Virus record (IMG/VR): IMGVR_UViG_3300027836_000007
Location: 1 to 64,000 of that record
Length of the DNA: 64,000 nucleotides
Reading direction: 5' to 3' (one strand)
Origin: a virus
This document shows positions 1-15,678 of the stretch, piece after piece. The stretch's first letter is position 1. Each line of letters opens with the position of its first letter. The position numbers were made by a program, and so were the translations under genes. A model generated the notes under the pieces. The model had not been told where the DNA came from and ran no database searches. It was given only the letters and a program-made list of their open reading frames with translations.

Positions 1-110
1 CATAGCGCCTCTTCGTGACTATCATAGCGTTTGCGTCCACTTGATGCGGCATTAGCATAGTGTGGCATAGCTAGTATCGCTTTAAATGATGTGTGTAATT
101 GTGTAGTCAT
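1..110 (-). CDS. Hypothetical protein, runs off the window edge (MTTQLHTSFKAILAMPHYANAASSGRKRYDSHEEAL...)
   Basis: ATG at 110 lies 7 nt after a minus-strand TATAAT; frame open to position 1. Confidence 0.55.
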   Translation of the reverse strand, partial: MTTQLHTSFKAILAMPHYANAASSGRKRYDSHEEAL

Positions 111-117
111 AGCAGTA

Positions 118-145
118 ATTATAGCAGGTTTTGAGCTAATGTCAA
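118..145 (-). promoter_or_regulatory. sigma70-type promoter
   Basis: TTGACA(145-140)-N16-TATAAT(123-118). Confidence 0.7.
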
Positions 146-624
146 CCTCACTATATACCAATAGCCGCGAAGCGGTAGCGCGAAAAAAATTTTGAGCATC
201 GGAAGTCTATAGCTCAGTCCCAGTTCATTCCATTCACTGGTTAGCCATTCGTTTGCCAAGACACACGTCTCGCCAAACTCTGGGTATTGATATTAACTTA
301 TAGTGTTAAGGACCAAATGACACCAATGACTATGCCCAAGCCAAATGCCAAGATACAAAGCCCGATGACAACAGCTGAATACACAACCGTATCCTCTACT
401 ATGAATTCAACCTGTTCACGAGTAATCACAGTATCAAGTCCTTTTTATATACATGTACCATTAATGGATCTATGAGTAAAGCCAATGACAGTCTATCCTC
501 ACGTATATAGAACTCAGCATATGGCTCAACACTTACAGCTGATACATACTCAGCACATAACCATAGTTGCTCTTGTACTGAATACTCAGCTGATGTACGA
601 TAACAATATAAACGCATATGACAT

Positions 625-965
625 AGACCCCGCTGCAAGGAAGAAGCTTGCGCTTCCTCTCCGTGTATACAGTATATAGCTTATGACTACTGCTTGTATC
701 CACAATGGAAGCTAGAGTTTATATAGTGCTATGACAGTGTACACAGTTCAAAGCATCGTCGCTTGCGCGAGCTCTGCGGGCGGAACCTATATATGTATAA
801 CAGCTATAGTAGCATGTACACTGACAGTACTCAAATGGTTCGAGCTAATAAGATTGTTATTGGGCACCATAGCGCAGGGTGTAGAGGCGGTTATAGTAAA
901 GACCCCGCTGCACGCACCAGCATATACTAGGGTAGAACTACAGTAACACAGGAGACCCCGCTGCA
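625..965 (+). repeat. Three exact copies of the 13-mer AGACCCCGCTGCA
   Basis: Copies at 625-637, 900-912, 953-965. Confidence 0.85.
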
Positions 966-1273
966 CATGTGCGTAGGGAGGGCGGATTTGGGGCATTAGA
1001 GTAACCATTTTAACTATGCCAGTCTCGACCTCACGGTTCTGAAAAATTTTCTACCATGCCTAGCCCCACCATGGCCCGATTATGAGTCATTATCCAGAAT
1101 CCATCACACTTTATCACACAATTCAACACTTTTAGACACTTTTGTCAACTCTGCCCCTCTGTATATGACTCTATGCGCAAGGTGGGGTGATCTAGTTCAC
1201 ACATTCTTGCATGCATATAGTACGGACCTAATCCTATTAACCTATATAAGGAGCCCGAACCGTTAAATACTGT

Positions 1274-1465
1274 ATGACCTTTACTACTATAGCTAATGTA
1301 TATGTACGTGACAGACAGTATAATGTTCATGTCAGCATTAATGATCTTACTCGTGCTATACATATATTCAAGTATGATGAACGCCATACTATATGTGAAT
1401 ATGAACTGTTCAATAATCATTTTGATGCCGCGGATTATTTAGAATTATTGCTGAAAGGTAAGTAG
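1274..1465 (+). CDS. Small hypothetical protein
   Basis: 63-aa ORF; TAAATA at 1264-1269, 4 nt before ATG. Confidence 0.6.
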   Translation: MTFTTIANVYVRDRQYNVHVSINDLTRAIHIFKYDERHTICEYELFNNHFDAADYLELLLKGK

Positions 1466-1675
1466 AGGGTTCGAACCAAAGTAAATGCTAGAATTCGGGG
1501 CCGAGACCTTCAGCCCAAATCCGTTTTGTCAACCGGATTTCTATAACCCTTTTGTCAACCAGGTCGTTGTTTTCGCGCCACAGTTAGTTGGCGCTTACTA
1601 ACATAGAACCCGACGCCCACCCTCGCCGTCCATCCCCTTAAGCAGTTCGAACACTCTTTGTCTTTCTATGCTGCA

Positions 1676-1704
1676 ATTATAACGCATTTTGGGCATTCTG
1701 TCAA
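1676..1704 (-). promoter_or_regulatory. sigma70-type promoter, divergent from the 1748 promoter
   Basis: TTGACA(1704-1699)-N17-TATAAT(1681-1676). Confidence 0.8.
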
Positions 1705-1782
1705 ATCCTCTAGAGAGACCCTGCCGATCGTGTGGGTATTATTTTGGTTGACTGCCCCTGCTCAAAGTGCTATAATTATGAC

Positions 1783-2109
1783 ATGGAAAAGAAAAAGCGA
1801 ACTGCACGTTCAGACTCAAACTATATCATATATGCCGCTACCCATAATGGGCAGAGCTATATTGGACTGACCCGCAAAGGTACAGTCAGCATAGCCAAAG
1901 CCGTTAAGGAACGCTGGCGCAAGCATATATCACGTGCAAAGCACGAGGATAGGGCTTGGGTCTTGTATCAGTATATCAAAGGCGGAGCATGGACTGACTG
2001 GGAGCATACAGTCATAGACGTGATTAGAGGGCGAGCTGAAGCTTATGCATACGAGCGTGAGCTGGTCAAGCAGATGCAGCCCGAACTGAACGATCAATAC
2101 ATCGGTTGA
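1783..2109 (+). CDS. GIY-YIG nuclease family protein
   Basis: YIIY...SYIGLT, ERWRKH and ERELV...PELN motifs; start reassigned to ATG 1783, 6 nt after TATAAT. Confidence 0.75.
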   Translation: MEKKKRTARSDSNYIIYAATHNGQSYIGLTRKGTVSIAKAVKERWRKHISRAKHEDRAWVLYQYIKGGAWTDWEHTVIDVIRGRAEAYAYERELVKQMQPELNDQYIG

Positions 2110-2165
2110 CGCTTTCCCCAAAAGGCGTTATAATAAACACTTAAACACACACAGGAGCGAACTGT

Positions 2166-2882
2166 ATGACTTTTAAACTTCTTAGCACCGCTAATCCCAA
2201 AATCCAAAAGGGTACCAAGCTGGGCTACTTGTCCTTCATCCTACACTTGGCACCAGCTGACTTGAGCGGGCGCAATACCTGCCCTAAGGCAACGGCTGGT
2301 TGTAAGGCAGCTTGCCTCAACACTGCAGGACGCGGTGGTATGTTCAAAAAGGGCGAGAACACTAACATGATCCAAAAGGCTCGCATTCGTAAGACTCAGT
2401 ACTTCTACGAAGCCCGTGACTACTTTATGGCTGACTTATATGCTGACATCCAAAAGGGCATCAAGCTGGCTACCAAGTTGGGCCTTACTCCAGTGTTTCG
2501 TTTGAACGGCACTAGTGACTTGAGCTGGGAGAAGTACACCATCAACGACAAGAACTTGTTTGAATTGTTCCCTACAGTACAGTTCTATGATTATACAAAG
2601 GTTCTGGGTCGTAAGGTATCACAGTACAAGAACTATTTCCTAATCTTCAGCAAGGCTGATGGCAATGACAGCGATGTTGCAGAAGCTATCCTACAAGGTA
2701 TGAATGTAGCCGCTGTCTTTGATGCGGTGCCTGAAGAGCATATGGGCCGTCCTGTTATTAATGCTGACGAGCACGATTTGCGCTTCTTAGATGCTAAGGG
2801 CGTGATTGCTGGACTTAAGGCCAAAGGCCGTGCTAAGAAGGACTACAGTGGATTCGTAATCCGTTTGACAGAAGTGGCTTAA
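2166..2882 (+). CDS. GP88-like phage protein (Cys-cluster, radical-SAM-like)
   Basis: CPKATAGCKAAC, RLNGTSD and FYDYTK motifs typical of this family; GGAGCGAA RBS. Confidence 0.65.
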   Translation: MTFKLLSTANPKIQKGTKLGYLSFILHLAPADLSGRNTCPKATAGCKAACLNTAGRGGMFKKGENTNMIQKARIRKTQYFYEARDYFMADLYADIQKGIKLATKLGLTPVFRLNGTSDLSWEKYTINDKNLFELFPTVQFYDYTKVLGRKVSQYKNYFLIFSKADGNDSDVAEAILQGMNVAAVFDAVPEEHMGRPVINADEHDLRFLDAKGVIAGLKAKGRAKKDYSGFVIRLTEVA

Positions 2883-2926
2883 GGCTTTATAATACTAACA
2901 TCAACACACAATAAGGAGCGAAACTT

Positions 2927-3190
2927 ATGTATACGGTAATTGTTTTCAAAGCAGACAAGCGCAAGAAGACAGGTGAGCGCGAAGTACTGTACAAGGACTA
3001 TGACACTGACAATAAGTCAATGCTGGAGCATACAGTCAAGAACACCTGGCGAAGCTCACAGGGCTTCCGTTATGAGATACACCAGACTATGGTAGAGCGT
3101 ACTAACATGATGGGTGGCGGCAAGTATCAGGAACGCTTTGATACTCCTAACTATTGCTCACCCTCTTCTGAATCTTATTGGAGTATGTAA
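2927..3190 (+). CDS. Early hypothetical protein
   Basis: Own promoter and GGAGCGAA RBS; ends CSPSSESYWSM. Confidence 0.8.
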   Translation: MYTVIVFKADKRKKTGEREVLYKDYDTDNKSMLEHTVKNTWRSSQGFRYEIHQTMVERTNMMGGGKYQERFDTPNYCSPSSESYWSM

Positions 3191-3399
3191 TGGCACAAGT
3201 AGACGGACAGACAGTTAAAATTGGTGACTGGGTTTGCTTTAAAGCTGACATAGAGCAGTCAGGCAAGATCGTGGACATTAAGAAGAGCTACATGGGCCAC
3301 AGTCTTGTGCTAGAGAACGAGAATGGGTTCCATGGTGACTACATTGGTGGGCAAACAATAACCACAGAGCTAGCCAGTGATTGTTGGATTGAAGGTTGA
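3190..3399 (+). CDS. Early hypothetical protein
   Basis: ATG overlaps the previous stop (TAATG); its own stop lies in the next -35 box. Confidence 0.75.
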   Translation: MAQVDGQTVKIGDWVCFKADIEQSGKIVDIKKSYMGHSLVLENENGFHGDYIGGQTITTELASDCWIEG

Positions 3400-3452
3400 C
3401 GCTCTGCTCAAAAGGCAGTATAATAAACACTTAAACACACACAGGAGCAGAC

Positions 3453-3743
3453 ATGTTAACCATACAAGACGTCAACAAGGCAATCATGCTACAGACTTGG
3501 ACCAACACAGAGCTCAGCTCTATGATTGATGCTGTCAAGTGGAACAGAGAGCAACTGAGCAAGCGCATCAAACGTTCGATCGGTGTAGGCGACAATGTGG
3601 AGTTCACTAGCTCTAAGACAGGGCGCTTGACCCGCGGCTTTGTCAAGAAGGTAGCCATTAAGTATGTCACAGTGGACACGGGCTCGGGCTTGTGGAGAGT
3701 TCCAGCTAACATGCTGACAGTGGTTGACAAAGAGCTGGCTTGA
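3453..3743 (+). CDS. Early hypothetical protein (SH3-like beta-rich C-terminal half)
   Basis: Own promoter, GGAG RBS; VGDNVEF...GFVKKV...VTV...WRVP pattern. Confidence 0.8.
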   Translation: MLTIQDVNKAIMLQTWTNTELSSMIDAVKWNREQLSKRIKRSIGVGDNVEFTSSKTGRLTRGFVKKVAIKYVTVDTGSGLWRVPANMLTVVDKELA

Positions 3744-3757
3744 AGCTATAATTGAGT

Positions 3758-4092
3758 TAAGTTAGAAGATAAAGGCGATCCTCAAATGCAAGGACCCACG
3801 CGAAAGCAAAAAGGGTCGTAGCCAAAGGATACGAAGAGAGTTTGGAGACTCTGCCTCCCAAATTGAGGTTACCTAGACCACTAGGCGACTGGGATGATGA
3901 CAGTACCGACGGGCGCTGGTCAAGTCCAGGAGCATGAAGCAGGGGCAACCCGGAGTTGCGGTGGACAATCTAGGAGTAATGACCGTGCAGGCCTACGTGA
4001 GACGTTTGCGTAGGTAGAGACAGATGCACAATGGTTCCTCTCTACTATAAGGCATTCAGGTAGACCCTGATGTAAGTCCAATCCTATAGAGA
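3758..4092 (+). ncRNA. Candidate ~330-nt structured non-coding RNA
   Basis: Follows promoter 3724-3752; no RBS or ORF; many nested helices with GAAA and GCAA tetraloops. Confidence 0.65.
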
Positions 4093-4097
4093 CTTTT

Positions 4098-4126
4098 ATT
4101 ATAGCACGTTTTTGAGACCCTGTCAA
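4098..4126 (-). promoter_or_regulatory. Antisense sigma70 promoter pointing into the structured element
   Basis: TTGACA(4126-4121)-N17-TATAAT(4103-4098). Confidence 0.8.
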
Positions 4127-4218
4127 TACCCATGAGGCCGGCAGGGTCTTTTATTTTGAGTTGACGTTTTGGACGATGTGCGCTATAATACAAGCATACA
4201 CACTAAAAAGGATCCAAA

Positions 4219-4443
4219 ATGTTTACAAACTGTATTGCACGTGCTAAGTTAAACTACAACAAAAAATTAAAATGCTACAAACTGCTAGTTGCATTTGTTA
4301 ACGAAGGCGACAGCATTACACAACGCAACAGCGCATTTGTTAGCGGAGATTTGTGTGCAGATACTATTACAGCAGATTTGCAACGTGTATTGCTTACAGC
4401 AGAAAAAACACTGCGCACAAGTAACATTGTATTTGTAGAATAA
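4219..4443 (+). CDS. Early hypothetical protein
   Basis: Promoter 4161, AAGGA RBS. Confidence 0.75.
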   Translation: MFTNCIARAKLNYNKKLKCYKLLVAFVNEGDSITQRNSAFVSGDLCADTITADLQRVLLTAEKTLRTSNIVFVE

Positions 4444-4457
4444 AAAAAGGAGCGTTA

Positions 4458-4679
4458 ATGAAAGTAAAAGTAATAAACATAGAGGACGGTGGCTTTTACA
4501 AAGACGCTTATGTTAGCGGCAACTGCGTAAAGGTTACACTGCAACGCGGCAAGGCGATTGCTAGTTGCGAACAAATACTTATTTGGGACGAGGAGTACGC
4601 TGAGGACTGCTTTGACGAATGGATGGACTGCGCACTAGCAGGTGAAGAGGGTTATACTTACACAGAAGGAGCGAACTAA
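4458..4679 (+). CDS. Early hypothetical protein
   Basis: GGAGCG RBS; acidic C-terminus. Confidence 0.75.
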   Translation: MKVKVINIEDGGFYKDAYVSGNCVKVTLQRGKAIASCEQILIWDEEYAEDCFDEWMDCALAGEEGYTYTEGAN

Positions 4680-4868
4680 ATGAGTAACATTAGCAAGGCA
4701 ATTAAACTACAAGAGGCAATTGACAAACTACACGAAGCGGATGCGCTGATGCAGGAAGCATTAGGGGCAAGCGAAGAGTGCTTTGACTTACATTGTGCGA
4801 TAGAAAGCGTTGCGGACGACATTGCGGAGTACGCAGAGCAACTAGTAGAGATGCAAATAACCGAGTAG
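4680..4868 (+). CDS. Early hypothetical acidic helical protein
   Basis: GGAGCGAA RBS at 4668-4675. Confidence 0.75.
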   Translation: MSNISKAIKLQEAIDKLHEADALMQEALGASEECFDLHCAIESVADDIAEYAEQLVEMQITE

Positions 4869-4953
4869 GCTGTAGGGTTATACATAGCGCACTTGACATT
4901 TTGGACAGAGTGCGCTATAATAACAACATAGCAAATAAAGAAAGAGAGCGAAG

Positions 4954-5181
4954 ATGACAAAAGCACTAAACAAACGCATTAGCGAAGCATTTGGCAAAAT
5001 ATACGACATGGGAGACAGCGGGCTGGACTACATGGACAAGCATTGCGCATTAGACGAAGCGTTAATGGAATATTTTTACAATGACACTGTAGAGACACTT
5101 AGCAAAGCAGACAAAACAAAAATGGCTGACATGCTAGAGGAAATTGCTAGCGATGCGGAATTTGACTTAGAAGCGTTTTGA
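4954..5181 (+). CDS. Early hypothetical acidic protein
   Basis: Promoter 4893; GAGCGAA upstream. Confidence 0.75.
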   Translation: MTKALNKRISEAFGKIYDMGDSGLDYMDKHCALDEALMEYFYNDTVETLSKADKTKMADMLEEIASDAEFDLEAF

Positions 5182-5215
5182 GTGTATAATTAACACTTAG
5201 CAACAAAGGAAGTAG

Positions 5216-5377
5216 ATGACAACACGTGAACAAATTTTGGACTTGCTAGCACAGGTGGAGACACTGCTAGAGGAGACAACATGTGACGGCAGGCAACTAG
5301 CAGAGATGCAATGCTTTGAGGAAGTGACTACAGCGTTTAGCACACTAGTGCAAACGATTGACTACTACGTGGATTAA
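5216..5377 (+). CDS. Early hypothetical protein, 53 aa (not in ORF track)
   Basis: Promoter 5162, AAGGA RBS; MTTREQILDLL...IDYYVD. Confidence 0.7.
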   Translation: MTTREQILDLLAQVETLLEETTCDGRQLAEMQCFEEVTTAFSTLVQTIDYYVD

Positions 5378-5405
5378 TGTTATAATTGTTTTTTTAGGAG
5401 CGTGT

Positions 5406-5768
5406 ATGATTGCATTTAAAGACGTTGTGTGTAGCACAAACGGCAAGGGCTACTGGAGCGCAACTGCTAAGGCAGTTAACGTTACAGGGGCAACTGTTGC
5501 TTATGTTAATGACGAAGGCGACTTTGGAGAGTTGCGTGTGTACTTTAATAACTGGGACACAGACAAGCTGGGTCTGATTTACACAGACAAACAGTTTATG
5601 CGAGAGTTTAAGGCAGTACTTGCTACGAAGCTGGGCTTTACAGATAAACAGCTTAATAAACTTTGCTACAGCGAGCAGGGTATGCAGGGCGACAACTACG
5701 TGAGCATGGACATTTTGAGTGCAGACATTATTAATACACTTACAGAGATAGAGACGGTTAATGTTTAA
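5406..5768 (+). CDS. Early hypothetical protein
   Basis: Promoter 5358, GGAGCG RBS; start reassigned to ATG 5406. Confidence 0.75.
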   Translation: MIAFKDVVCSTNGKGYWSATAKAVNVTGATVAYVNDEGDFGELRVYFNNWDTDKLGLIYTDKQFMREFKAVLATKLGFTDKQLNKLCYSEQGMQGDNYVSMDILSADIINTLTEIETVNV

Positions 5769-5985
5769 TAACATACTACAGTGGGCGGGCACTGTGTGCC
5801 TGCTTACAATGTACGTGCTAATGTCTTTCTTTCCACAGCTACACCCCTACAATATTGCGGCGGGTGTACTTGGGGGAGCATGTTACTTGGTGTGGACCCT
5901 GCGTGTGCGCAATAGACCACAGCTAATAGTTAACGCTGTAGCAATAACCATTGGGCTAGCAGGGTTATACAAAGCCTGGGGTTGA
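5761..5985 (+). CDS. Small membrane protein (about 3 TM segments)
   Basis: Hydrophobic segments; stop codon lies in the -35 box at 5982. Confidence 0.7.
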   Translation: MFNNILQWAGTVCLLTMYVLMSFFPQLHPYNIAAGVLGGACYLVWTLRVRNRPQLIVNAVAITIGLAGLYKAWG

Positions 5986-6043
5986 CAGTTTGAGCTAACC
6001 CTGCTATAATACTTACATACAAACAAACATTGGAGCGAACCAA

Positions 6044-6325
6044 ATGGACAAATACGAAATTGTGGAACTGTTTGAATCTAACTTTATGCGTAGCACAGAG
6101 GGCGAGACAGGTGTCCGCAACCTAGAGAATGTATGCGAGGTCCTGGGCTACGGCCAAGGCTTTATGCGTAACCGTGCCATTGAGGAGTTCCTTACAGACA
6201 ACCCGGGTGCTGTAGAAGGCCTGTTCCAGTTTATCAGCGAGTGGGCATTGCGCAACACAGATTGGCAAGCAGGTATGGAGGATGCGCTTGATGAAGAGGG
6301 CCTGCTTGACGAGGTTGACGCCTAA
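6044..6325 (+). CDS. Early hypothetical acidic protein
   Basis: Own promoter and GGAGCGAA RBS. Confidence 0.8.
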   Translation: MDKYEIVELFESNFMRSTEGETGVRNLENVCEVLGYGQGFMRNRAIEEFLTDNPGAVEGLFQFISEWALRNTDWQAGMEDALDEEGLLDEVDA

Positions 6326-6376
6326 CCCAAAAGCTGTTATAATACTTACATACAAACAAACATTGGAGCGAAAACA

Positions 6377-6625
6377 ATGCTAGTCAAAGAACTTATTGAA
6401 TCCCTCAAGTACATGGATCAGGACGCAGAGGTCCACTTTGCTTACAACTATGGCGACCACTGGCGCACAGAGGTAGCTCCAAAGGTTAGTCAAGTCACCG
6501 AAGGCGTTGTGGAGTACAGTGACTACCACCGCATGGACAAGCTGGTTACAGACGAAGAGGACTGCTACGACGAAGAAACGGGCGACTACAAGACGGATGT
6601 CCGCAAAGTAGTCGTCATCGGTTGA
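6377..6625 (+). CDS. Early hypothetical protein
   Basis: Own promoter and GGAGCGAA RBS. Confidence 0.8.
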   Translation: MLVKELIESLKYMDQDAEVHFAYNYGDHWRTEVAPKVSQVTEGVVEYSDYHRMDKLVTDEEDCYDEETGDYKTDVRKVVVIG

Positions 6626-6681
6626 CGCTTTGTCCAAAAGACGTTATAATAAACACTTAAACACACACAGGAGCGAAACAA

Positions 6682-7173
6682 ATGGGTACACGTTCAATGA
6701 TTGCTATTCAAAACCCGTATAGCAAAGACGTCCGCGCAGTCTACTGCCACTGGGACGGCTACTTGGAGCACAACGGCTCTATCCTCAACAAACACTATTC
6801 AGCAAGCTCTAAAGTCAACAACCTCGTAGCACTAGGCGACTTGTCCAGCTTGCGTCCTGAGATTGGCATTCAACACGCATTTAGTTCGTTGGACGTGCCC
6901 AAAGCGGAGCAAGAGGCATACGATAAAGAGCACGGCAACTCCTGTACATTTTACACACGCGACAGAGGCGAGGACGCTCCGTTCAAAGTGTTCCCTACGC
7001 TTAAAAAGGCAGAGAGCTACTTTGAAGGCAGCTGGTGCGAGTACTTGTATGTCTTCAAATACAAAAAGTCCGACGACTACCAAAGCGGCGAGTGGCACTT
7101 TAAAAAGATGGGTGAGCGTTGGAAGAAGCTTGCCCCAGCACTTGCTAAACTCAAAGCAGAGGACTGCGCATGA
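6682..7173 (+). CDS. Conserved phage hypothetical protein (YCHWDGY motif)
   Basis: MGTRS...VYCHWDGY...EYLY pattern; own promoter and RBS. Confidence 0.8.
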   Translation: MGTRSMIAIQNPYSKDVRAVYCHWDGYLEHNGSILNKHYSASSKVNNLVALGDLSSLRPEIGIQHAFSSLDVPKAEQEAYDKEHGNSCTFYTRDRGEDAPFKVFPTLKKAESYFEGSWCEYLYVFKYKKSDDYQSGEWHFKKMGERWKKLAPALAKLKAEDCA

Positions 7174-7442
7174 CAGGGTTCCAATCAAAGAGGGCTTCGG
7201 CCCTTGATAAACTTACGGAGTACGGTATGAAGAAAGTGTACGTTGAGACTGTATTGATGCAAGAGCTTGAAGTTCCAGAGAACTGGGGGCGTGAAGATGT
7301 GTTTGACTTCCTTGCTGAGAACCAATCGTTCCGTACAGCGTTCCAAGGTGTAAGCAATGAGGACCAAACAGCCCGCATCCTCGATGTAGGCGTAATGATT
7401 GAAAAAGTAACCCAAATGGGAGAGGAGTGTTTTGATGAGTAA
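7170..7442 (+). CDS. Early hypothetical protein (true start may be downstream)
   Basis: ATGA overlap with previous gene. Confidence 0.65.
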   Translation: MTGFQSKRASALDKLTEYGMKKVYVETVLMQELEVPENWGREDVFDFLAENQSFRTAFQGVSNEDQTARILDVGVMIEKVTQMGEECFDE

Positions 7443-7614
7443 GATGAAAGACTTGACGTACGATATTGAAGCTATGTTCATTGAGGGCGAGACTCCCAGT
7501 GAGATTGCTCTACAGCTGGATATCCCACTTAGCTTGGTTAAGAGCACACTAGAGTCATTTGGTGTGGACACTAGGGATATCGCAGAGGACTTTGGCGACT
7601 ATCAGGGCGCTTGA
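7435..7614 (+). CDS. Small HTH-like protein
   Basis: GETPSEIALQLDIPLSLV resembles a helix-turn-helix. Confidence 0.6.
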   Translation: MSKMKDLTYDIEAMFIEGETPSEIALQLDIPLSLVKSTLESFGVDTRDIAEDFGDYQGA

Positions 7615-7664
7615 CACTTTGAGCTTTTGGTTGTATAATACACTTATACAGACAGGAGCACACA

Positions 7665-7805
7665 GTGAAGATTACAATCAAAGTATCCAAAAAGCACAGA
7701 GAACACTTTGTTCTCTTTGCCCAAAACACTCCCTTCAAGCAGAAGGTAGTGGCCAGCAAGGTCAAATTTAAACGCAACCCTAAGCACAAAGGACGCGAAC
7801 AATGA
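7665..7805 (+). CDS. Small basic protein, 46 aa, GTG start (not in ORF track)
   Basis: Promoter 7611, GGAG RBS; ends FKRNPKHKGREQ. Confidence 0.6.
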   Translation: MKITIKVSKKHREHFVLFAQNTPFKQKVVASKVKFKRNPKHKGREQ

Positions 7806-8032
7806 AACTAGACGGACTTACAGAGCACCAAGTAGAGCTCCTGGACACCATGTGGTCCATCGACGAGTTCACAGATTTAGAGGCTTGGATGGAGACTCTA
7901 AGCAAAGAAGATAAGGCTGAAGCAGAACTCCTACAGCGCCTAGTGATCCTTGAAGAGTTTGAAGCCATGCTGGCCACTAGCAAATACCCTGAAGCCAACA
8001 TGGTTATTGATAAGTTTCGGTTGACGAAGTAG
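7802..8032 (+). CDS. Early hypothetical protein
   Basis: ATGA overlap with previous gene. Confidence 0.7.
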   Translation: MKLDGLTEHQVELLDTMWSIDEFTDLEAWMETLSKEDKAEAELLQRLVILEEFEAMLATSKYPEANMVIDKFRLTK

Positions 8033-8083
8033 ACGTTGTTTGCTATAATATACACTTACACAAACAAATAAGGAGCGAAACTT

Positions 8084-8350
8084 ATGAACATTAGCACACT
8101 AGAGCAGTATGTGGAGCAGAAGAACAAATGGCGTTCTATCTTCAACCAAAAGCCACTGAGCTTGTTGAATGGTAAGGATCGCCAGAGCATTGCTAACAGC
8201 ATTGACAGCGAACTGAGTCCAGAGAACCTTACATGTGACGGCGAGTTGCGTGGCTCACAGGTTCAGCAGAAGTTCCGTTACCTTACTCGTTGTGCTGAAG
8301 AACTTCTCAGCATTGATCCTTCAGTAACTTTTTACGAAATGGGAGTCTAA
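8084..8350 (+). CDS. Early hypothetical protein (LSPENLTCDGE motif)
   Basis: Own promoter and GGAGCGAA RBS. Confidence 0.8.
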   Translation: MNISTLEQYVEQKNKWRSIFNQKPLSLLNGKDRQSIANSIDSELSPENLTCDGELRGSQVQQKFRYLTRCAEELLSIDPSVTFYEMGV

Positions 8351-8351
8351 G

Positions 8352-8942
8352 ATGCCTAATTGGTGTAACAACTATCTCGAACTAGAACACGAAGATCCTG
8401 CTATGATTGAGCGGGCCCGCAAAGCGTTCAACGAAGGTAAGCTCTTGGAAGAGTTCTGCCCAGTGCCAGCAAGCCTACACATCGTAGCAGGCTCTGTAGG
8501 TGATCCAGACGAACAGAAGAAGTTGGAAGAAGACACAGCCCGTAACCTAGAGGTCCATGGATATGGCAACTGGTATGACTACTGCGTCAACGAGTGGGGC
8601 ACCAAGTGGGATGTGGGCGGGGATGGTATGACTGCTGGTGAAGACAGCCCTAACGCAACTTCTATGGGATTCGACAGTGCTTGGGCACCACCCATTGCCG
8701 CAATGGAGAAGTTCCAGGACTTGGGCTTTAAGGTCAAGCTCATCTATTGGGAATCGGGCATGTGCTTTGCTGGCTTGTTTGATGAGAACGGTGATGACTA
8801 CTTGGACTACAGTGATATGAGTGCCGATGACGTAGAAGCCAATATCAATTCCGAAGTGGACGAGTGTATGTGCATCGTAGAGAACCTGCGTGAGTGGGAA
8901 GAAGATAACAAAGAAGAGGAAGAAGAAAATGAAACCAAGTAA
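8352..8942 (+). CDS. DUF1281/YubB ferredoxin-like domain protein
   Basis: MPNWCNN, WYDYCVNEWGTKWD and FDSAWAPP motifs. Confidence 0.7.
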   Translation: MPNWCNNYLELEHEDPAMIERARKAFNEGKLLEEFCPVPASLHIVAGSVGDPDEQKKLEEDTARNLEVHGYGNWYDYCVNEWGTKWDVGGDGMTAGEDSPNATSMGFDSAWAPPIAAMEKFQDLGFKVKLIYWESGMCFAGLFDENGDDYLDYSDMSADDVEANINSEVDECMCIVENLREWEEDNKEEEEENETK

Positions 8943-9089
8943 AGAAGCAATGGATCAATTGGACGCTATTTTGGCAAAATGGGCTAAAGATTCAAAAGAA
9001 AATGGTTGACAAGCAACCCAAAAGGTAATATAATTAGAACATGGACAAGAAGTTCATATTTTTTAACACACACAGAAGAGGTAATTCAA

Positions 9090-9446
9090 ATGGCTACAGA
9101 TAAATTGTTTAACATCGTTGGCGTATCTAAACTCAATGGCGAGTATAAAGTTCGCTTCGCAACTGATATCATGCGTATCAAGGTCCTGGCTAAGTCAGGT
9201 CATGAAGACATCCGCTTGGCAGAGCTTGATAAGCCTGTAACTAAGTTGGAAGCCGCAAAGCAGATTGCTTTGATGGACGAGTTCCAAGATGCGGCAGCTC
9301 AGTCTACCATTGCTGAGTATATCGAAGACAAGAGCCCTAAGGCTCCAAAAGCCAAGGCAGCTCCTGCTCCTAAGGCTAAAGCAACTAAGGCTCCTGCCAA
9401 GAAGGCAACTGCTAAGGTTGTTGAGAACGAAGACGCTCCGTTCTAA
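9090..9446 (+). CDS. Hypothetical protein with Lys/Ala/Pro-rich (histone H1-like) tail
   Basis: Promoter 9006, GAGG RBS; KAPKAKAAPAPKAKATKAPAKKA; start reassigned to 9090. Confidence 0.75.
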   Translation: MATDKLFNIVGVSKLNGEYKVRFATDIMRIKVLAKSGHEDIRLAELDKPVTKLEAAKQIALMDEFQDAAAQSTIAEYIEDKSPKAPKAKAAPAPKAKATKAPAKKATAKVVENEDAPF

Positions 9447-9628
9447 TCAATGCGGTACGGGTGCTCTCTAAGTCGTGACTATGAACCCTACAGAGTCGTT
9501 GTACGCGACTTCGAGAGTTCACCCGCAGGCCGCGTTCTATGTATTATTGCTCGTGACAACCAACACGAAGCTGAACAGATAGCACAATCTATCTGCGACT
9601 TACTAAACAAACAACTACCACAAACAAC

Positions 9629-9817
9629 ATGAACTGGGAACTATACGAGGTCTGGGCTGTCGACACTGACGGCAACGAGGATCTTATCGATACCACAAAG
9701 AGTCTTAAAGAAGCCAAGGAAATGGCTACATGGAACTTGGGTGAGGATTGCGTCGAGTGCGTGATCTATGCCGAAGATCCAGAAGGCGAATTGGTTGAAT
9801 TAGAACGCATTAAATAA
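9629..9817 (+). CDS. Early hypothetical acidic protein
   Basis: 62-aa ORF overlapping upstream ORF 9450-9632. Confidence 0.65.
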   Translation: MNWELYEVWAVDTDGNEDLIDTTKSLKEAKEMATWNLGEDCVECVIYAEDPEGELVELERIK

Positions 9818-9824
9818 GATTACC

Positions 9825-9903
9825 GGGCCTCTAGCTCATGCTTGGTTAGAGCAGTGGACTCATAATCCATTGGTGCGGAGTTCGACTCTCCGGGGGCCCA
9901 CCA
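9825..9903 (+). tRNA. tRNA with CAT anticodon, most likely tRNA-Ile2 (lysidine-modified) rather than Met
   Basis: Cloverleaf: acceptor GGGCCTC/GGGGCCC, anticodon loop CT-CAT-AA, GTTCGA T-loop, encoded CCA; resembles bacterial ileX. Confidence 0.9.
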
Positions 9904-9907
9904 TATT

Positions 9908-9982
9908 CTGGCGTTCGTTCAACGGATAGGACAAGGCTCTTCTAAAGCCTTAATGGGGGTTCGATTCCCTCACGCCGGACCA
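9908..9982 (+). tRNA. tRNA-Arg(TCT)
   Basis: Acceptor CTGGCGT/ACGCCGG, anticodon arm AGGCT-CT TCT AA-AGCCT, GGTTCGATT, CCA end. Confidence 0.9.
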
Positions 9983-10047
9983 CTAGCGGTTGACGACTCT
10001 GCCCAAACCGTGTATAATTAACACATAAACACAGCAAGGAGCGAAAC

Positions 10048-10431
10048 ATGGAAGCATTCAAAAGTTGGGAAGAGATGAGCACACTAGAGCAGTATGCTTG
10101 CCAGTTCTGGGACATGTATAAGGATGCCTACAATGTTCGTCCCCGCGGTATTGATACCAGCTCCTGGACTGAAGCTGAGTTCGAAGCTGAGTTTGTTCAG
10201 TTGGCCAAGACCATTGAAGCCAACTACAAGGAACAGCTGGAGTCCGAAGCCAAGGCTGTAGAGCGTTTCGAAGCACAGGTCCAGAGCTTCATTGAGTCGG
10301 GTGCTAAGGATCGCGCAACTGCTATCCGTTGGTTCCATGAAGCTGAAGGTAGCAATGGTGATGACGAGTACCTTTGCTTCTTGCTAGGATTGCCCTACCG
10401 CTACTTTGTGGTTGACGCCCAGCCAGTTTGA
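10048..10431 (+). CDS. Conserved phage early protein (D-x-YKDAY-x-x-RPR motif)
   Basis: Own promoter and GGAGCGAA RBS. Confidence 0.8.
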   Translation: MEAFKSWEEMSTLEQYACQFWDMYKDAYNVRPRGIDTSSWTEAEFEAEFVQLAKTIEANYKEQLESEAKAVERFEAQVQSFIESGAKDRATAIRWFHEAEGSNGDDEYLCFLLGLPYRYFVVDAQPV

Positions 10432-10471
10432 TAGTATAATAAACACTTAAACACAATAAGGAGCGAAACTT

Positions 10472-10672
10472 ATGTATGATATTGTAACAAACCCAATCCC
10501 AAAGAGCAAACTGTTTGCCACTCCAGCTACAGAGCAGGACCTGTTCAATCGCATTGAACAGCTATCAGGTGCTGAGAAGGCACTGGCATTCCAAATCGCA
10601 ATGATGACATTCAACTTGTGTAACCACTTGGTGGAAACAAAGATCCTGTCTAAAGAGGTGTTCGCACAATGA
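10472..10672 (+). CDS. Early hypothetical protein
   Basis: Own promoter and GGAGCGAA RBS. Confidence 0.8.
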   Translation: MYDIVTNPIPKSKLFATPATEQDLFNRIEQLSGAEKALAFQIAMMTFNLCNHLVETKILSKEVFAQ

Positions 10673-10847
10673 ACGATATCCTTTACTTCTTTTATATGAC
10701 TATGGAACTGTGGATCTTCCTGGCGATCCTCATGCTGGCCCTGTTCGTTGAAGAAGGCGTCATAGCATACGGCAAGCGCAAAACGGTTGACAATCCTGCG
10801 CTCCGATAGTATAATAACTACTTAAACAGCAAACAGGAGCGAACCCA

Positions 10848-11048
10848 ATGCGTACACAAACAAACAAACTGCTAGAGATGATGGACGAAGGACTTATCTC
10901 AGCACAGGCCATTGCAGAGATGGCACTGTCTTACATGTCAGAAGATGACGTGGCAGACATGATGCGTAGCAACGACATCCTGGACGAAGAAGATGACGGC
11001 CAGCCCGACGAACAGCAAGAATGGGCGGACTTTGACGCAGACTGCTAG
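10848..11048 (+). CDS. Early highly acidic protein
   Basis: Own promoter and GGAGCGAA RBS; ends DGQPDEQQEWADFDADC. Confidence 0.8.
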   Translation: MRTQTNKLLEMMDEGLISAQAIAEMALSYMSEDDVADMMRSNDILDEEDDGQPDEQQEWADFDADC

Positions 11049-11111
11049 TTGACACACTGCCCAAAAGGCAGTATAATAACTACTTACACAAACACAATGG
11101 AGCGCAACATT

Positions 11112-11438
11112 ATGATTACAGCAGAACAAGTACTAGAAGCCAAAGGCATTGCTTATACAGCGTCAGTGGACATGTACAACAAGATGGGCCGCAAGGACGC
11201 ATTTGCATGTGGCTTTGCGTGGGTAGACGTCTACGTGGACCGTACTAACTCAGCCCAAGCCAAAGAGCTTATCAAAGCAGGCTTCAAAAAGGACTATAAG
11301 CCCAAGTGCTTGTCAATGTGGAATCCAGGCGACCTGCCAGTCCAAAACATCGACATCAAAGAAGCAGGTGCGGACGCTATGGCAGAGTACCTCAGGGCAC
11401 TGGGACTCCAAGCGTACTCAGGTAGCAGATTGGATTAA
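11112..11438 (+). CDS. Early hypothetical protein (CGFAWV motif)
   Basis: Promoter 11049, GGAGCG RBS; start reassigned to 11112. Confidence 0.75.
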   Translation: MITAEQVLEAKGIAYTASVDMYNKMGRKDAFACGFAWVDVYVDRTNSAQAKELIKAGFKKDYKPKCLSMWNPGDLPVQNIDIKEAGADAMAEYLRALGLQAYSGSRLD

Positions 11439-11516
11439 TGCTATATCAGAACACGTTGACAAACAGCGTGTTCGAGTATATAATTAATTCTTTAACAGCG
11501 TAACAAAGGAGCGAAG

Positions 11517-12386
11517 ATGGCAAAAGTACATACAGCAATTAGCCTAGCAAAGGCATCGGCAGAATCCAAAAGTTTGGCTATGGAGCCAGTAGAGAAAGTG
11601 CTTACGGAAACAGACGAAGAGATTTTGAATCGCCTGCGCGAACGCTTTGAAATCCTCGACGACATGACACGTGCCGTTAAGAAGGGCGCAGTTCGCGCTA
11701 TGATTGTCACAGGCCCTCCAGGTGTTGGCAAGAGCTTTGGTGTAGAGAAGGTCCTGAGCAAGCATGATACATTCGCAGACATTGCTAACGACAGCAAGCT
11801 GAAGAAGTACGAAGTAGTCAAGGGCGCAATGAGTGCCATTGGCTTGTACAGCAAGCTCTATGAGTACAGTGACAAGAAGTCTATCCTAGTGTTTGATGAC
11901 TGCGACTCAGTACTGTTAGACGACTTGAGCTTGAACATTCTTAAGGCTGCTCTGGACACTAGTAAGAAGCGTATGATCCATTGGAACACTGACAGCAGAC
12001 TCTTGCGTAGTGAAGGTGTCCCAAACAGCTTTGAATTCAAAGGCGGCGCTATCTTTATTACCAACATCAAGTTTGACCACGTGAAGAGCAAGAAGCTTCA
12101 GGATCACTTGGAAGCATTGGAAAGCCGTTGCCACTACTTGGACTTGACTATTGACACCCAGCGTGAGAAGGTACTGCGCATTAAGCAAGTGGTTACTGAG
12201 TGTGGCATGCTGGATGACTATGAGCTTACTGATGCGCACAAGCTAGAGGTAGTAGAGTTCGTAGACGCTAACAAGAACCGTATGCGTGAGCTGAGCTTGC
12301 GTACAGTACTTAAGGTAGCAGACTTACACGTTAGCTTCCCAGACAAGTGGAAGAGCGTAGCAGAGATGACTTGTATGCGCCACTAA
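11517..12386 (+). CDS. P-loop (AAA-like) ATPase
   Basis: Walker A GPPGVGKS, Walker B ILVFDDCD, ALESR arginine-finger-like segment. Confidence 0.85.
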   Translation: MAKVHTAISLAKASAESKSLAMEPVEKVLTETDEEILNRLRERFEILDDMTRAVKKGAVRAMIVTGPPGVGKSFGVEKVLSKHDTFADIANDSKLKKYEVVKGAMSAIGLYSKLYEYSDKKSILVFDDCDSVLLDDLSLNILKAALDTSKKRMIHWNTDSRLLRSEGVPNSFEFKGGAIFITNIKFDHVKSKKLQDHLEALESRCHYLDLTIDTQREKVLRIKQVVTECGMLDDYELTDAHKLEVVEFVDANKNRMRELSLRTVLKVADLHVSFPDKWKSVAEMTCMRH

Positions 12387-12563
12387 GCGTATACAGCATA
12401 GCTAGCCAAGCAGCCTACAAGAGCTGTACGCTAGCGAGTAGTAGACACGCCAACGATTCGCTCCCGGTAACGTGTCAACGTAGTACAGATGACGCCAACA
12501 AGGCAACGTCTGGTAAGCACTAGGATAAATCCGATTCGCTCCCGGTTCCTAGTGCTTTTTTTT
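12387..12563 (+). ncRNA. Candidate anti-RBS small RNA (3'-UTR derived)
   Basis: Three hairpins; two loops carry the same 15-mer CGATTCGCTCCCGGT (12454-12468, 12532-12546); ends in a terminator. Confidence 0.65.
12515..12563 (+). terminator. Rho-independent terminator closing the early region
   Basis: Stem AAGCACTAGGA/TCCTAGTGCTT followed by a T run. Confidence 0.85.
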
Positions 12564-12911
12564 GGCCCCGGGGTCGGTAATTATATTATCGAAATGGTGA
12601 GGGGGTCCGACTATACATATTATTCTTTGTTGCTTTTTTACAACAGCGCATGCCTTTTTCCCACCCCATAGGTGCCAAATCACCCCACCAAAAGTTTAAG
12701 TACTATCTTTATTTTTTTCGCGAGCATCCTGCGCAAATAGCAAAGACCCAATCGGGCAAGCCTGCGGCCCGCTTGTTCGGGTGCTGCCAAGCACACGACT
12801 TCACTGTAGCTTATAGTAAAAACAACCCCACCCTCACTGTAAGTACTGGCTCAATTTTTTTTGCGCTAGAAAAATATTCCCCGCCCTGATGCCTTTCGCA
12901 TAAGTATTAGC

Positions 12912-13103
12912 ATGAACCAACAGGATAATCACACTGTACAAAAGGACGGTAAGTACTATCGTTACGACTCAGATTACGACTGTTTCTACCGTGTATACAC
13001 ACGTGATGAATATAATGAATTTCCCCATTGGGACAAGTACAGCTGGATCTACGTTGTTTTATTCTTGTCTGCCATTGCTTACTATGTTGAGTATGTGCGA
13101 TGA
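12912..13103 (+). CDS. Small protein with C-terminal TM helix
   Basis: TAAGTA 5 nt before ATG. Confidence 0.6.
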   Translation: MNQQDNHTVQKDGKYYRYDSDYDCFYRVYTRDEYNEFPHWDKYSWIYVVLFLSAIAYYVEYVR

Positions 13104-13321
13104 TGCGTCAATACTACATACTAACGCTTGATCCACGTGCAGGTGAAGTGTTTAACTTTATTCGTGACCATAAGCTAACAGTGGATGTACACTTGAATCG
13201 TACACGCTTTTGGATAGCTGAAGATACTAGTGTGCTTACAGAGTTCTTATTACGCTTTAGTGATTGCTGTCCGTATGTAGATACCTGTGCGGATTTGGCT
13301 ACAGGACTACGCCCACTGTAG
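13100..13321 (+). CDS. Hypothetical protein
   Basis: ATGA overlap; VHLNRTRFW motif. Confidence 0.65.
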   Translation: MMRQYYILTLDPRAGEVFNFIRDHKLTVDVHLNRTRFWIAEDTSVLTEFLLRFSDCCPYVDTCADLATGLRPL

Positions 13322-13561
13322 TAAGAATAGGGTTTTGTGTTTGGCTAGCTTGAACGCTACGCAGGCTTGCCAATAGTCATGACTCGTTCCATTGTGATAC
13401 GCCCAGTGACTATAGTGACTGCCCACATAGCGGTTAAGCCATACTTCCATACACTCTGTAGCATTGACCCAATCCCATTGTCCATCGTTAATGACAACAG
13501 GCCAAGGGGCGGTAGCTATATGCTCAAAAGGATGTAAGTCTGGTAAGTACATGCTGGGCAT
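13307..13561 (-). CDS. Hypothetical protein
   Basis: Start reassigned to 13561, TAAATA 5 nt upstream; ends TLFLLQWA. Confidence 0.65.
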   Translation of the reverse strand: MPSMYLPDLHPFEHIATAPWPVVINDGQWDWVNATECMEVWLNRYVGSHYSHWAYHNGTSHDYWQACVAFKLAKHKTLFLLQWA

Positions 13562-13923
13562 ACATTTATTTATAGTTGAGGCACGCAAGCTGTAACTTAT
13601 AAATTGCGTTTTACCGCTTGCTACTTCGTAGCTATTTGGCTTATGCGGCTCCGCGCTTCGCGGAGTCTCGGGCTATATGAGCGGGTATTAATCCACATGC
13701 TCATATGGCTCTATAACACCAACCCAATCACACACATGTAATTTAAAATCACTGTTTAATTTCATTGCGTAACTGTCGGCACAACGTTTGGCGTAAGTAG
13801 GGTCGCCTAACATGGGATCACCTACTAGATCCATGCTTTGTTGTTTTTGCCCTGTTTGTTGGCTTGAAGCCAGGACTCTATATCTAGTTGCCATTATTGT
13901 TTCCTCTGCTTGGTAAATACACA

Positions 13924-14139
13924 ATGCGTATATTTAATGTACTTATCAGTTTATTGCCCACTCCTTTGTTTATACTAGGATTTATTTGGGAAGTAACGCA
14001 CACGTCTAACATGTGTGGCAACACCTGGAGTATGCCCGCCATGTGGGCTATTATGGCTGTGGCGCACTTGCCCAGCTGGTTTGTTTGGTGGGATCAACGA
14101 ACGTTGGCCAAATATAGACGTCCAGTTAAACAACAGTGA
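13924..14139 (+). CDS. Small membrane protein
   Basis: TAAATA 4 nt before ATG 13924; two hydrophobic segments. Confidence 0.55.
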   Translation: MRIFNVLISLLPTPLFILGFIWEVTHTSNMCGNTWSMPAMWAIMAVAHLPSWFVWWDQRTLAKYRRPVKQQ

Positions 14140-14379
14140 TATAATCCATCTGCTACCAGGGTCATCACCTGGTACATTTCCCATAGTCTATCAGGATATT
14201 GTTGGTAGTACTCTGCGGGGCTTTCACCAATGTCTACAGCTAGATAAACACCTCTAGGGCCACCAATCCAAGTGTCCCAACGTGTATCGTCATGTTGGCA
14301 ACAGCAATAGTCAAGTCCTTGTATATTGGTATAGTCTGACTGTTGGGGCTCTACTGAGTCTAGCATACATCAACCAGGG

Positions 14380-15678
14380 TTAAGTTGCTACTGTTATGGT
14401 ACCTACCATGGCAAGGTGAATTTGACAGATATAGTAGAACGTTCCAGTATTGGTCACACGCCATCTTACAGTGCCAACAGCTACTCCGTTATTTTCTGCA
14501 GTTGAAACTCCATTAACTGTACCTGTGACTGCTGAAGTTTTAACCCAGAATGGATGCGTTGGGGCATTTACCACAAAGTCCACAACATCGCCTGTTCTAA
14601 ATGTCAGCGCAGGATCGTTACCACTTACTGCTCCGTTACGGTCGGTGCCGCTTAGAGCATAAGCTGTACTGCCAACGTTTGTTACATTAATTGTAAACAA
14701 TTCGTCTAAAGACAATCCTACATCACTGTTGTAGAAGTATTCGCCAGTGCCGTCATTGGTAAATGCGCCGCCACTGTAGTTCCATTGTAAGAATTGTCCG
14801 CCGGCGCCGCCGCTGTTGCCCGTTATAAATCTAACAGGATAATAAGTGCCAGCTGTCAGCAAAAAGTTGCGGCTATATGTGTATGCCGCGCCGCGCAGTC
14901 CGGGCTGTGCTATGGCAGCATTGCTGGTAGAATAACCAGTAAGGGCTGTAGCACCAATCCACAAATAACCAGCATCATCTGACGCTATGCCAAATCCATA
15001 CACACCTGTTGCTGTAGCTAGGAAATAACCTATATACTGATAGCTTGTTGAAAGAGCAGCCAGGGTGGTGTTTATGTTATTTGTTACTCCGGTGTTAGTT
15101 GAACCTGCAAGGGTAAAGAAGTTGACATTATCATTATAGTAACCAGATTGTGTGTACTGAACTAGACCAGCAGTTGGATAAATTGTTCCCCTAAACTGTA
15201 TAAAATCTATTTGAAATTGATCCAAGCTACTGGAACCAAAATCAAATCTAACGTTGGTTATGGTGTTGTCAGTCCAGTCTGTTCCGCCCGCAGTTAATGT
15301 TCGCATGTCCAGAGTAATCAACTGATAGTTTATACCGTCCCAAGCGGGTTCAGGAATTTGTTTATAGAATGATGCGCTGGCTGTATGCCCAGCTGTTGAG
15401 TAATAGACTTTACCGTCCCATAATGATCCAGCAGTTCTAAAAATAAAAATTTGAATATAAGGATACTGTCTACCACTAAAACTAACGTTCTTTGATAGTA
15501 TAGGATCAACGCCGGTTGACGTCAGTGATATGGTATTTGCGCCCTGGGTTATTGTTGCGTTAGTAGGAACCCATCCGTCAGCAGTACCGGTAAACTGAGA
15601 CAGTATAGGAGCTGCTGCTGTGGTTACTCCTGTTGGTACTACAGCAAAATTGTTTCTATGCCAAAGAGCTGGACGCAT
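14380..15678 (-). CDS. Putative virion adhesin: carbohydrate-binding-like, PA14/GLEYA-like and C-terminal cupredoxin-like domains
   Basis: PA14-like SDDAGYLWIG...LTAGTYYPVR; blue-copper-like HPFW...YYICQIHLAMVG; coupled to the tail fibre gene. Confidence 0.6.
   Translation of the reverse strand: MRPALWHRNNFAVVPTGVTTAAAPILSQFTGTADGWVPTNATITQGANTISLTSTGVDPILSKNVSFSGRQYPYIQIFIFRTAGSLWDGKVYYSTAGHTASASFYKQIPEPAWDGINYQLITLDMRTLTAGGTDWTDNTITNVRFDFGSSSLDQFQIDFIQFRGTIYPTAGLVQYTQSGYYNDNVNFFTLAGSTNTGVTNNINTTLAALSTSYQYIGYFLATATGVYGFGIASDDAGYLWIGATALTGYSTSNAAIAQPGLRGAAYTYSRNFLLTAGTYYPVRFITGNSGGAGGQFLQWNYSGGAFTNDGTGEYFYNSDVGLSLDELFTINVTNVGSTAYALSGTDRNGAVSGNDPALTFRTGDVVDFVVNAPTHPFWVKTSAVTGTVNGVSTAENNGVAVGTVRWRVTNTGTFYYICQIHLAMVGTITVAT

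Follow-up and report, generated by a model that had tools for sequence, protein, structure and literature searches.

The window analysed here is the first 64 kb (64,000 nucleotides, nt) of a 106.8-kb virus contig (IMG/VR record IMGVR_UViG_3300027836_000007; 39.8% G+C). Its + strand carries, from 1.7 to 12.6 kb, an early block of small genes, in which a promoter scan finds about 22 consensus sigma-70-type promoters (TTGACr-N17-TATAAT) between positions 1748 and 11484. The gene at 11517-12386 (+) encodes an AAA ATPase (Pfam AAA / AAA_16) that resembles T4 NrdC.10 and shares 39 to 40% identity with genes bearing the annotation nrdC.10 in phages Acj9 and Aeromonas phage 25. Directly downstream lies a non-coding element of 177 nt in its 3' untranslated region (3'UTR; 12387-12563, + strand). 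This element is the subject of our analysis: two of its predicted hairpin loops display the exact complement, UUCGCUCC (the anti-tag), of an 8-nt sequence, GGAGCGAA (the tag), that covers the ribosome-binding sites (RBSs) of many early genes. An earlier interpretation, hereafter the sequence-only reading, had proposed that the element is an RNA silencing the early genes.

The tag occurs 13 times in the window, 11 times on the + strand and twice on the - strand (12457 and 12535), whereas 0.91 occurrences are expected, with a maximum of 4, in 100 shuffles; no further copy is found on either strand of the rest of the 106.8-kb contig. Every + strand copy is located 1 to 4 nt upstream of an ATG. 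The tagged early genes are those at 2166-2882 (tag at 2154-2161), 2927-3190 (2915-2922), 4680-4868 (4668-4675), 6044-6325 (6032-6039), 6377-6625 (6365-6372), 6682-7173 (6670-6677), 8084-8350 (8072-8079), 10048-10431 (10038-10045), 10472-10672 (10460-10467) and 10848-11048 (10836-10843), all on the + strand, and the ATPase gene itself, whose tag (11508-11515, +) ends 1 nt before the ATG. Ten of the 11 copies belong to a repeated cassette composed of a TTGACr-N17-TATAAT promoter, a CA-rich leader of about 20 nt and the tag; the exception, at 4668, is operon-internal and has no promoter of its own. The leader cassettes are long and near-identical, and the 8-mer is still exact where the flanks have diverged. 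The 11 genes and four near variants listed by the sequence-only reading were all recovered, the variants (GGAGCGTT, GAGCGAAG, GGAGCGTG and GGAGCGCA) all retaining GGAGCG or GAGCGAA. Within their own leaders the tags are predicted to be mostly unpaired (probability 0.48 to 0.87).

The two complements of the tag in the 106.8 kb are both inside the element, within a 15-mer, CGATTCGCTCCCGGT, that is duplicated at 12454 and 12532. When folded with RNAfold, 12387-12563 forms four hairpins (12401-12435, 12444-12476, 12486-12512 and 12515-12557), one more than had been announced, with a z-score of -2.9. Hairpin 1 (12444-12476, +) has an outer stem GACACG/CGTGTC, an internal loop CCAA/UAA, an inner stem CG/CG and a 9-nt loop at 12456-12464, in which the first anti-tag (12457-12464, +) is open (probability unpaired 0.90 to 0.99). 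The middle hairpin (12486-12512, +) has an apical GCCAACAAGGCAA and no anti-tag; this apical motif does not complement the tag, and 9 of the 73 relatives with two copies have a similar one. Hairpin 3 (12515-12563, +) is an intrinsic terminator, with an 11-bp stem AAGCACTAGGA/TCCTAGTGCTT (12515-12525 / 12547-12557; -14.8 kcal/mol), an inner stem CCG/CGG, a 9-nt loop at 12534-12542 and a T8 run at 12556-12563. The second anti-tag (12535-12542, +) occupies its loop (probability unpaired 0.94 to 1.00). Both loops thus consist of A followed by UUCGCUCC, are closed by a G-C pair and are open at 0.90 to 1.00 per nucleotide, so that the duplication and the placement of the copies in loops closed by GACACG/CGTGTC and by CCG/CGG on the terminator stem are as the sequence-only reading had described them. 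By mimicking the tag from within the element, a stretch upstream, GCUAGCGAG (window 12430-12464), might compete for loop 1.

Hairpin 3 combines the G+C-containing stem and the U-run of intrinsic terminators, although its loop region (21 nt with the inner 3-bp stem) is unusually large. It is the sole strong hairpin followed by a T-run on the + strand within 1-14400, and past 4150 no strong internal intrinsic terminator was found in the early block. Most early transcripts should therefore end in the element, barring Rho-dependent stops. No promoter for the element alone was found near 12300-12440. We also considered the 15-mer as an RBS of the minus strand and rejected this candidate: behind one copy there is a TTG frame of 12 codons, behind the other no start codon.

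Relatives of the ATPase are numerous in IMG/VR (more than 598 in a first scan, and more than 600 related loci overall). Since the 15-mer by itself matches more than 119 contigs, which by our own estimate is about the number expected by chance for a collection of this size, the analysis was restricted to ATPase-linked loci. The best 80 of these (73 to 90% protein identity) all contain one to three copies of TTCGCTCC in the 180 nt that follow the ATPase gene; on the upstream side, GGAGCGAA is missing just from a few loci for which little sequence is available there. In the window's clade (clade 1, 84 distinct loci), TCGCTCC is present within 300 nt behind the ATPase gene in 83 loci, and its 163 copies there represent 6.5 per kb, against 0.028 per kb elsewhere in the same loci. 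Two copies are found in 72 elements, one in 10, three in 1 and none in 1, with a spacing of 35 to 120 nt, and any stop-free frame is present in just 7 of the 84.

Among relatives, the loops do not change and the stems co-vary. The core GA-UUCGCUCC-C is invariant, its 3-bp inner stem varies (CCG/CGG, GUG/CAC, CUG/CAG), and the outer stems are wholly different in sequence among relatives while their complementarity is kept. When 30 sequences of hairpin 1 are aligned, compensatory changes are seen at each of the 7 outer pairs and 97.4% of the cells are paired; sliding the partner by 1 to 3 columns reduces this to at most 37%, and the covariation score was reached by none of 500 shuffles. For the terminator, RNAalifold on a MAFFT alignment recovered just the invariant inner stem, because internal-loop lengths vary, and sequences were folded one by one instead: 41 of 62 distinct hairpins fold with the loop fully open, on 33 different arm sequences. 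In the relatives, 100 of 144 motif copies fall in a hairpin loop, compared with 37 of 720 when the flanks are shuffled. T-runs follow the last hairpin in the listed relatives. Together with these T-runs, the G.U pairs (about 9 cells in hairpin 1 and 19 in the terminator stems) and the confinement of unpaired cells to the terminal pair favour the + strand as the one that would fold. The view of the element as a conserved structured RNA with open loops is supported by these data.

If loops and tags do pair, they should differ together between lineages. A sister clade (clade 2, 51 distinct loci), reached via locus L226, shares gene order and promoter type, but its early leaders carry GAGGGCA(A), and the hairpins behind its ATPase gene show GCCCUC, mostly as UGCCCUC, one to five times. 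Compared with the pair found in the window, 4 of 8 positions differ and all 4 are compensated. The two clades mirror each other: leaders with GGAGCGA number 368 in clade 1 and 0 in clade 2, those with GAGGGC or AGGGCA 12 and 374, 3'UTR copies of TCGCTCC 163 (83 loci) and 0, and 3'UTR copies of GCCCTC or TGCCCT 4 and 151 (50 loci). Locus L225 is a hybrid, in which early leaders (7440-7470, 8920-8945) hold both AGGGCAA and GGAGCGAA, and the element (9860-9945), here 3 kb downstream of the ATPase gene, displays UUCGCUCC in one loop and GCCCUC in the terminator loop; two tag/anti-tag systems are thus found within one phage. Clade 3, reached via L317, uses several pairs: AGGAGCUA(A) with UUAGCUCCU, CAGGAGCU with AGCUCCUG, GGAGCAA(A) with UUUGCUCC, CAGGAGCA with UGCUCCUG and, once, GGAGCGAA with UUCGCUCC. 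Loops of this clade include UAGCUCC (facing GGAGCUA) and UUGCUCC (facing GGAGCAA).

Over the three clades, 116 of 189 distinct loci have, in the 3'UTR of the ATPase gene, a complement of at least 7 nt to the gene's own leader. With the 3'UTRs reversed, the count falls to 18; when they are exchanged at random among loci, the mean over 200 permutations is 50.5 and the maximum 66. In more distant ATPase relatives, RBSs are ordinary and no element is recognisable (L227-L229, 63 to 64% identical to the clade-1 relative L080; L312, L315, L319, L321 and L325, 40 to 51% identical to L260). The closest isolated relative of the ATPase, in the PA5oct group (48% identity), shows no synteny behind the gene, which precludes comparison.

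The energetics are compatible with such pairing. The loop-tag duplex has a mean of -14.1 kcal/mol, against -7.3 for the canonical anti-Shine-Dalgarno (anti-SD) sequence on the same leaders. When each of the 11 leaders is cofolded with the element, the whole 8-nt tag is paired to the latter and the net gain ranges from -7.8 to -15.2 kcal/mol, hairpin 1 having to open in the model. As tag and loop are complementary and differ together between lineages, pairing between RNAs is well supported, and we consider it very likely, as far as sequences can tell, that the exposed loops pair with the tag in this way.

The question arises as to which messages would be addressed. Of the 45 distinct loci of clade 3, 37 show a match of 7 to 9 nt to the RBS of the ATPase itself, and the tag is absent from the 6 to 30 other leaders of each locus (a lone hit was flagged, in L361), usually occurring once per 12 kb. 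In clade 1, GGAGCGA is present in the ATPase leader of 63 of 83 loci (76%), compared with 17% of other candidate leaders, and most of the listed exceptions still hold GGAGCG; in clade 2 the ATPase leader is tagged in 33 of 50 loci, compared with 28% of other leaders. Given the exclusivity in clade 3 and the higher tag rate in clades 1 and 2, the ATPase's own RBS is, in these comparisons, the most constant putative partner. The position of the element points the same way. The sequence-only reading had placed it after the last early gene, which holds for the window; across relatives, however, it is tied to the 3'UTR of the ATPase gene even where early genes continue past it (L224-L226). Likewise, its proposal that the loops address a shared early RBS, that of the ATPase included, agrees with the complementarity and the joint changes, except that in clade 3 the ATPase RBS is the sole partner.

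A precedent for such an arrangement is icaR of Staphylococcus aureus, whose 3'UTR carries an anti-SD motif directed at the SD region of its own mRNA; this pairing prevents initiation and generates a substrate for RNase III (PMC3868564). In the window, the 3'UTR motif (UUCGCUCC, 12457 and 12535) is similarly complementary to the SD region of its own mRNA (GGAGCGAA, 11508), as is the case in 63 of 83 clade-1 and 37 of 45 clade-3 loci. With the ATPase RBS as the most constant partner, and the sole one in clade 3, the ancestral role looks like a self-control of this type, and the regulon-wide reach appears to be an extension specific to clade 1 and its sister clade 2. One may go further and suppose that the element is nothing but such a clamp between the 5' and 3'UTRs of the ATPase mRNA, the other ten tags having been copied along with their long, near-identical promoter-leader-RBS cassettes and not being addressed. 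We find this restriction rather unlikely. The tag 8-mer is exact despite diverged flanks, and is found at the cassette-free RBS 4668; L225 combines two tags with two loops; and exposed tags of identical sequence would all be open to pairing with a free loop.

The tag is moreover found at RBSs of distant genes. Three near-complete relatives (345 to 383 kb, 94 to 100% complete), which also hold the early-block element seen in their loci, contain 9 to 17 copies of the 8-mer, against 0 to 2 for a control word, and several of the scattered copies lie at RBSs of distant genes, which also speaks against self-control only and indicates that the GGAGCGAA tag is not strictly confined to early genes. Such sites are found at G003:C1:177780-177860 and 284260-284340 and at G001:C1:281080-281160 (loci L400, L401, L406); the genes start with MSEE(V/I)K or MTEEIK, behind A/T-rich sequence, which in L400 resembles a late-type TATAAT box. 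A paired site in G003 (278913 / 278953), considered as a second element, proved to be two + strand tags, one of them an RBS. For the window's clade, we regard a regulon-wide reach as plausible.

The overall explanation that we judge best, and hold to be probable, is that the loops of the element pair with the early RBS tags and keep 30S subunits off, resulting in a delayed negative feedback. The 177 nt behind the ATPase gene would form the common 3' end of early messages, and two hairpins, the terminator included, would display the loop A-UUCGCUCC. These loops would pair with GGAGCGAA, which overlaps the SD sequence, on the ATPase mRNA and on at least 10 other early mRNAs, and the duplex over SD and spacer would exclude 30S subunits. 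The element should be the end of most early transcripts, so that pairing is conceivable both in cis, the 5' and 3' ends of a single transcript closing on each other, and in trans, the loops being provided by another transcript or by a 3' fragment that resists nucleases; a fragment protected by the terminator could outlast the bodies of the messages. As early RNA accumulates, so would the loops, and early translation would be repressed with a delay. We infer that the RNAs meet in the cell, that repression is the outcome and that a stable fragment accumulates, and the same applies to any role in timing. The early-to-late timer of the sequence-only reading is accordingly a tentative idea, which we hold to be less likely than not.

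The same pairing could, alternatively, protect or activate. The duplex would then guard GGAG, or the 5' end, against cleavage by a RegB-like enzyme or by the host RNase E, or would close the mRNA into a loop favouring re-initiation, and early expression would be prolonged. Pairing itself is equally well supported under this scenario, and the cuts made by T4 RegB, which inactivates early mRNAs by cleaving inside the GGAG of the SD sequence, with an influence of the sequence 3' of GGAG, show that early SD regions are nuclease targets in related phages (PMC3014915). However, a duplex over the SD sequence blocks 30S binding in every characterised case (icaR, CcsR), whether or not decay is also induced, and a Pfam search for RegA and RegB gave no match in the contig or in the three near-complete relatives, although this search had no positive control and does not show absence. 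We therefore consider a protective role improbable.

We tend to exclude, as very improbable, a third scenario in which the loops are sites for a protein (for instance, an antiterminator or an RNA chaperone that acts on the terminator hairpin), or the 8-mer a double-stranded DNA operator present in both orientations, RBS complementarity being incidental: what is invariant does extend beyond the pairing core, to GA-UUCGCUCC-C and, in hairpin 1, to 20 nt, a factor bound to the copy in the terminator loop could modulate termination, and a double-stranded DNA site would likewise change at all positions together, but the extra invariant G and C are the closing pair, the chance of finding an 8-mer complement within the 15-mer is about 1e-4, a protein site on RNA would not follow the RBS through at least three tag types and a two-tag hybrid, and an operator gives no reason for co-varying stems, loop placement and a T-run.

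Several observations weigh against the explanation by loop-tag pairing and repression. An 8-bp contact from a 9-nt loop requires the weak inner stem to open, and although both anti-tags are open, not buried, in the fold with the natural 3' end, other fragment ends can leave loop 1 partly paired with the upstream GCUAGCGAG stretch. Sequence alone does not set the direction of the effect, repression or protection. The co-variation consists of few, lineage-wide switches. Independent-pairs sign tests on the ATPase tree of the 189 loci, which are underpowered and made noisy by crude 6-mer traits and uncertain start codons, gave 0 to 3 informative pairs in the same direction and 0 to 1 in the opposite one (p 0.25 to 1), and in clade 2 the base flanking GCCCUC does not correlate with the base after GAGGGC (rho -0.04, p 0.8). 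Some relatives are partly discordant: L196 combines an RBS GGAGCAA with loops GUCGCUCC, that is, one mismatch, and in L260, L275 and L295 the GCCCUC loops have lost their match to the majority of early RBSs, which read GGAGAUC or GAGGAGCA; a match is retained by some leaders, among them that of the ATPase in L295. L294, L300, L304 and L306 have an SD sequence distinct from the AGGGCAA target, which precedes it by a few nucleotides and is still inside a 30S footprint. The co-variation of loop and RBS that the sequence-only reading had called for is therefore borne out by the switches between lineages, which together with the two-tag hybrid are what is expected of seed and target in a base-pairing small RNA (sRNA), and not by the controlled sign test.

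As for known systems, the element is a variant of the anti-SD RNA theme that stands outside the icaR, Cuckoo/CcsR and c4 families. It differs from icaR in being phage-encoded, in having its motif in hairpin loops, one of which is the terminator loop, and usually duplicated, and in a tag that extends past the SD sequence into a private 8-mer, carried in this clade by some ten further genes. In Alphaproteobacteria, the Cuckoo or CcsR sRNAs (RSs0680, ar14, NfeR) repress through anti-SD loops (PMC8034643; PMC4615179 cited there). Like the element, they are hairpin arrays of a 3'UTR in which each hairpin shows the same anti-SD loop. The Cuckoo loop CCUCCUCCC is, however, a generic anti-SD sequence, whereas the loop of the element, AUUCGCUCC, matches a phage-private tag that varies with lineage. 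The upstream gene is also different. Neither does the element belong to this family by sequence: CCUCCUCCC is absent from its loops (those of relatives read GCCCUC, UAGCUCC or UUGCUCC), and the ar14 covariance model gave no match.

The c4 antisense RNA of phages P1 and P7 (Rfam RF01695) is made from the same transcription unit as its targets, and its exposed segments pair over an RBS further along. It is a processed upstream RNA that controls one immunity operon of a temperate phage. The element resembles it as a phage RNA from the transcription unit of its proposed RBS targets, but is a 3'UTR and terminator element of a lytic-type jumbo phage and would address many RBSs; the c4 covariance model has no match in the window or in 12300-14400. 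More generally, no Rfam family matched, either in the window, searched at the gathering threshold, or in 12300-14400, searched at E <= 1. RNAIII of S. aureus and other sRNAs with C-rich loops pair loop-displayed C/U-rich seeds with the SD regions of several mRNAs. RNAIII shows no homology to the element, is separately transcribed, and has seeds that match generic SD sequences and not a private extended tag. The T4 translational repressor RegA and endoribonuclease RegB fulfil the same apparent task, a global shut-down of early mRNAs through their RBS regions (PMC3014915), yet they are proteins, where we propose an RNA. Terminator loops have been reported to play a role in sRNA action in Escherichia coli, probably without base-pairing (PMC11979758). 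Our literature searches found no description of the present element.

The contig, whose completeness is estimated by CheckV at 29%, encodes a tail sheath with about 40% identity to its counterparts in Atu_ph07 and PA5oct, two jumbo myoviruses; a near-identity search of the locus against isolated phages gave no match. Genes for tRNA-Met (CAT) and tRNA-Arg (TCT) are found inside the + strand early block, at 9825-9982. Past this block, structural genes are on the - strand and mostly lack a strong SD sequence: between 14380 and 64000 the late and structural genes have in most cases no recognisable SD, or a bare GGAG or AGGA, in contrast to the strong extended tag of early genes. The 1.5 kb between the converging early and late blocks (12564-14093) contain only small open reading frames on both strands (for example, 12912-13103 and 13100-13321 on the +, 13307-13588 and 13688-13924 on the - strand), C-rich runs (CCCCACC) and short repeats (TAGCAAAGACCCAATC, 3 copies), with no Rfam match. 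In L260 and L275, early leaders (for instance L260:3300-3340 and 8020-8060) mostly read AACUCCAC...GGAGAUC, and the CUCC stretch, 6 to 8 nt upstream of the SD sequence, could sequester the latter in cis.

In its widest form, loop-tag pairing would amount to a phage-private address system for translation, in which extended RBS tags and the matching loops of a single 3'UTR/terminator RNA shut off early genes by RNA only, doing the job of RegA and RegB; such a system would be re-codable and would have begun as self-control of the ATPase gene. This is a speculative extension, and we doubt it more than we believe it. If pairing works as we propose, early protein synthesis is under the control of RNA, and not of RegA/RegB-like proteins, in a large and widespread group of jumbo phages that are aquatic and uncultured. 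Because the 8-nt tag overlapping the SD sequence is phage-private and was re-coded several times, nature would provide orthogonal tag/anti-tag pairs, such as the clade-2 tag GAGGGCAA with GCCCUC loops, which make the hypothesis testable by swaps and could serve as compact translational switches. Finally, the comparison of clades shows a plausible path from the self-control of a single gene by its 5' and 3'UTRs (clade 3) to a regulon (clades 1 and 2).

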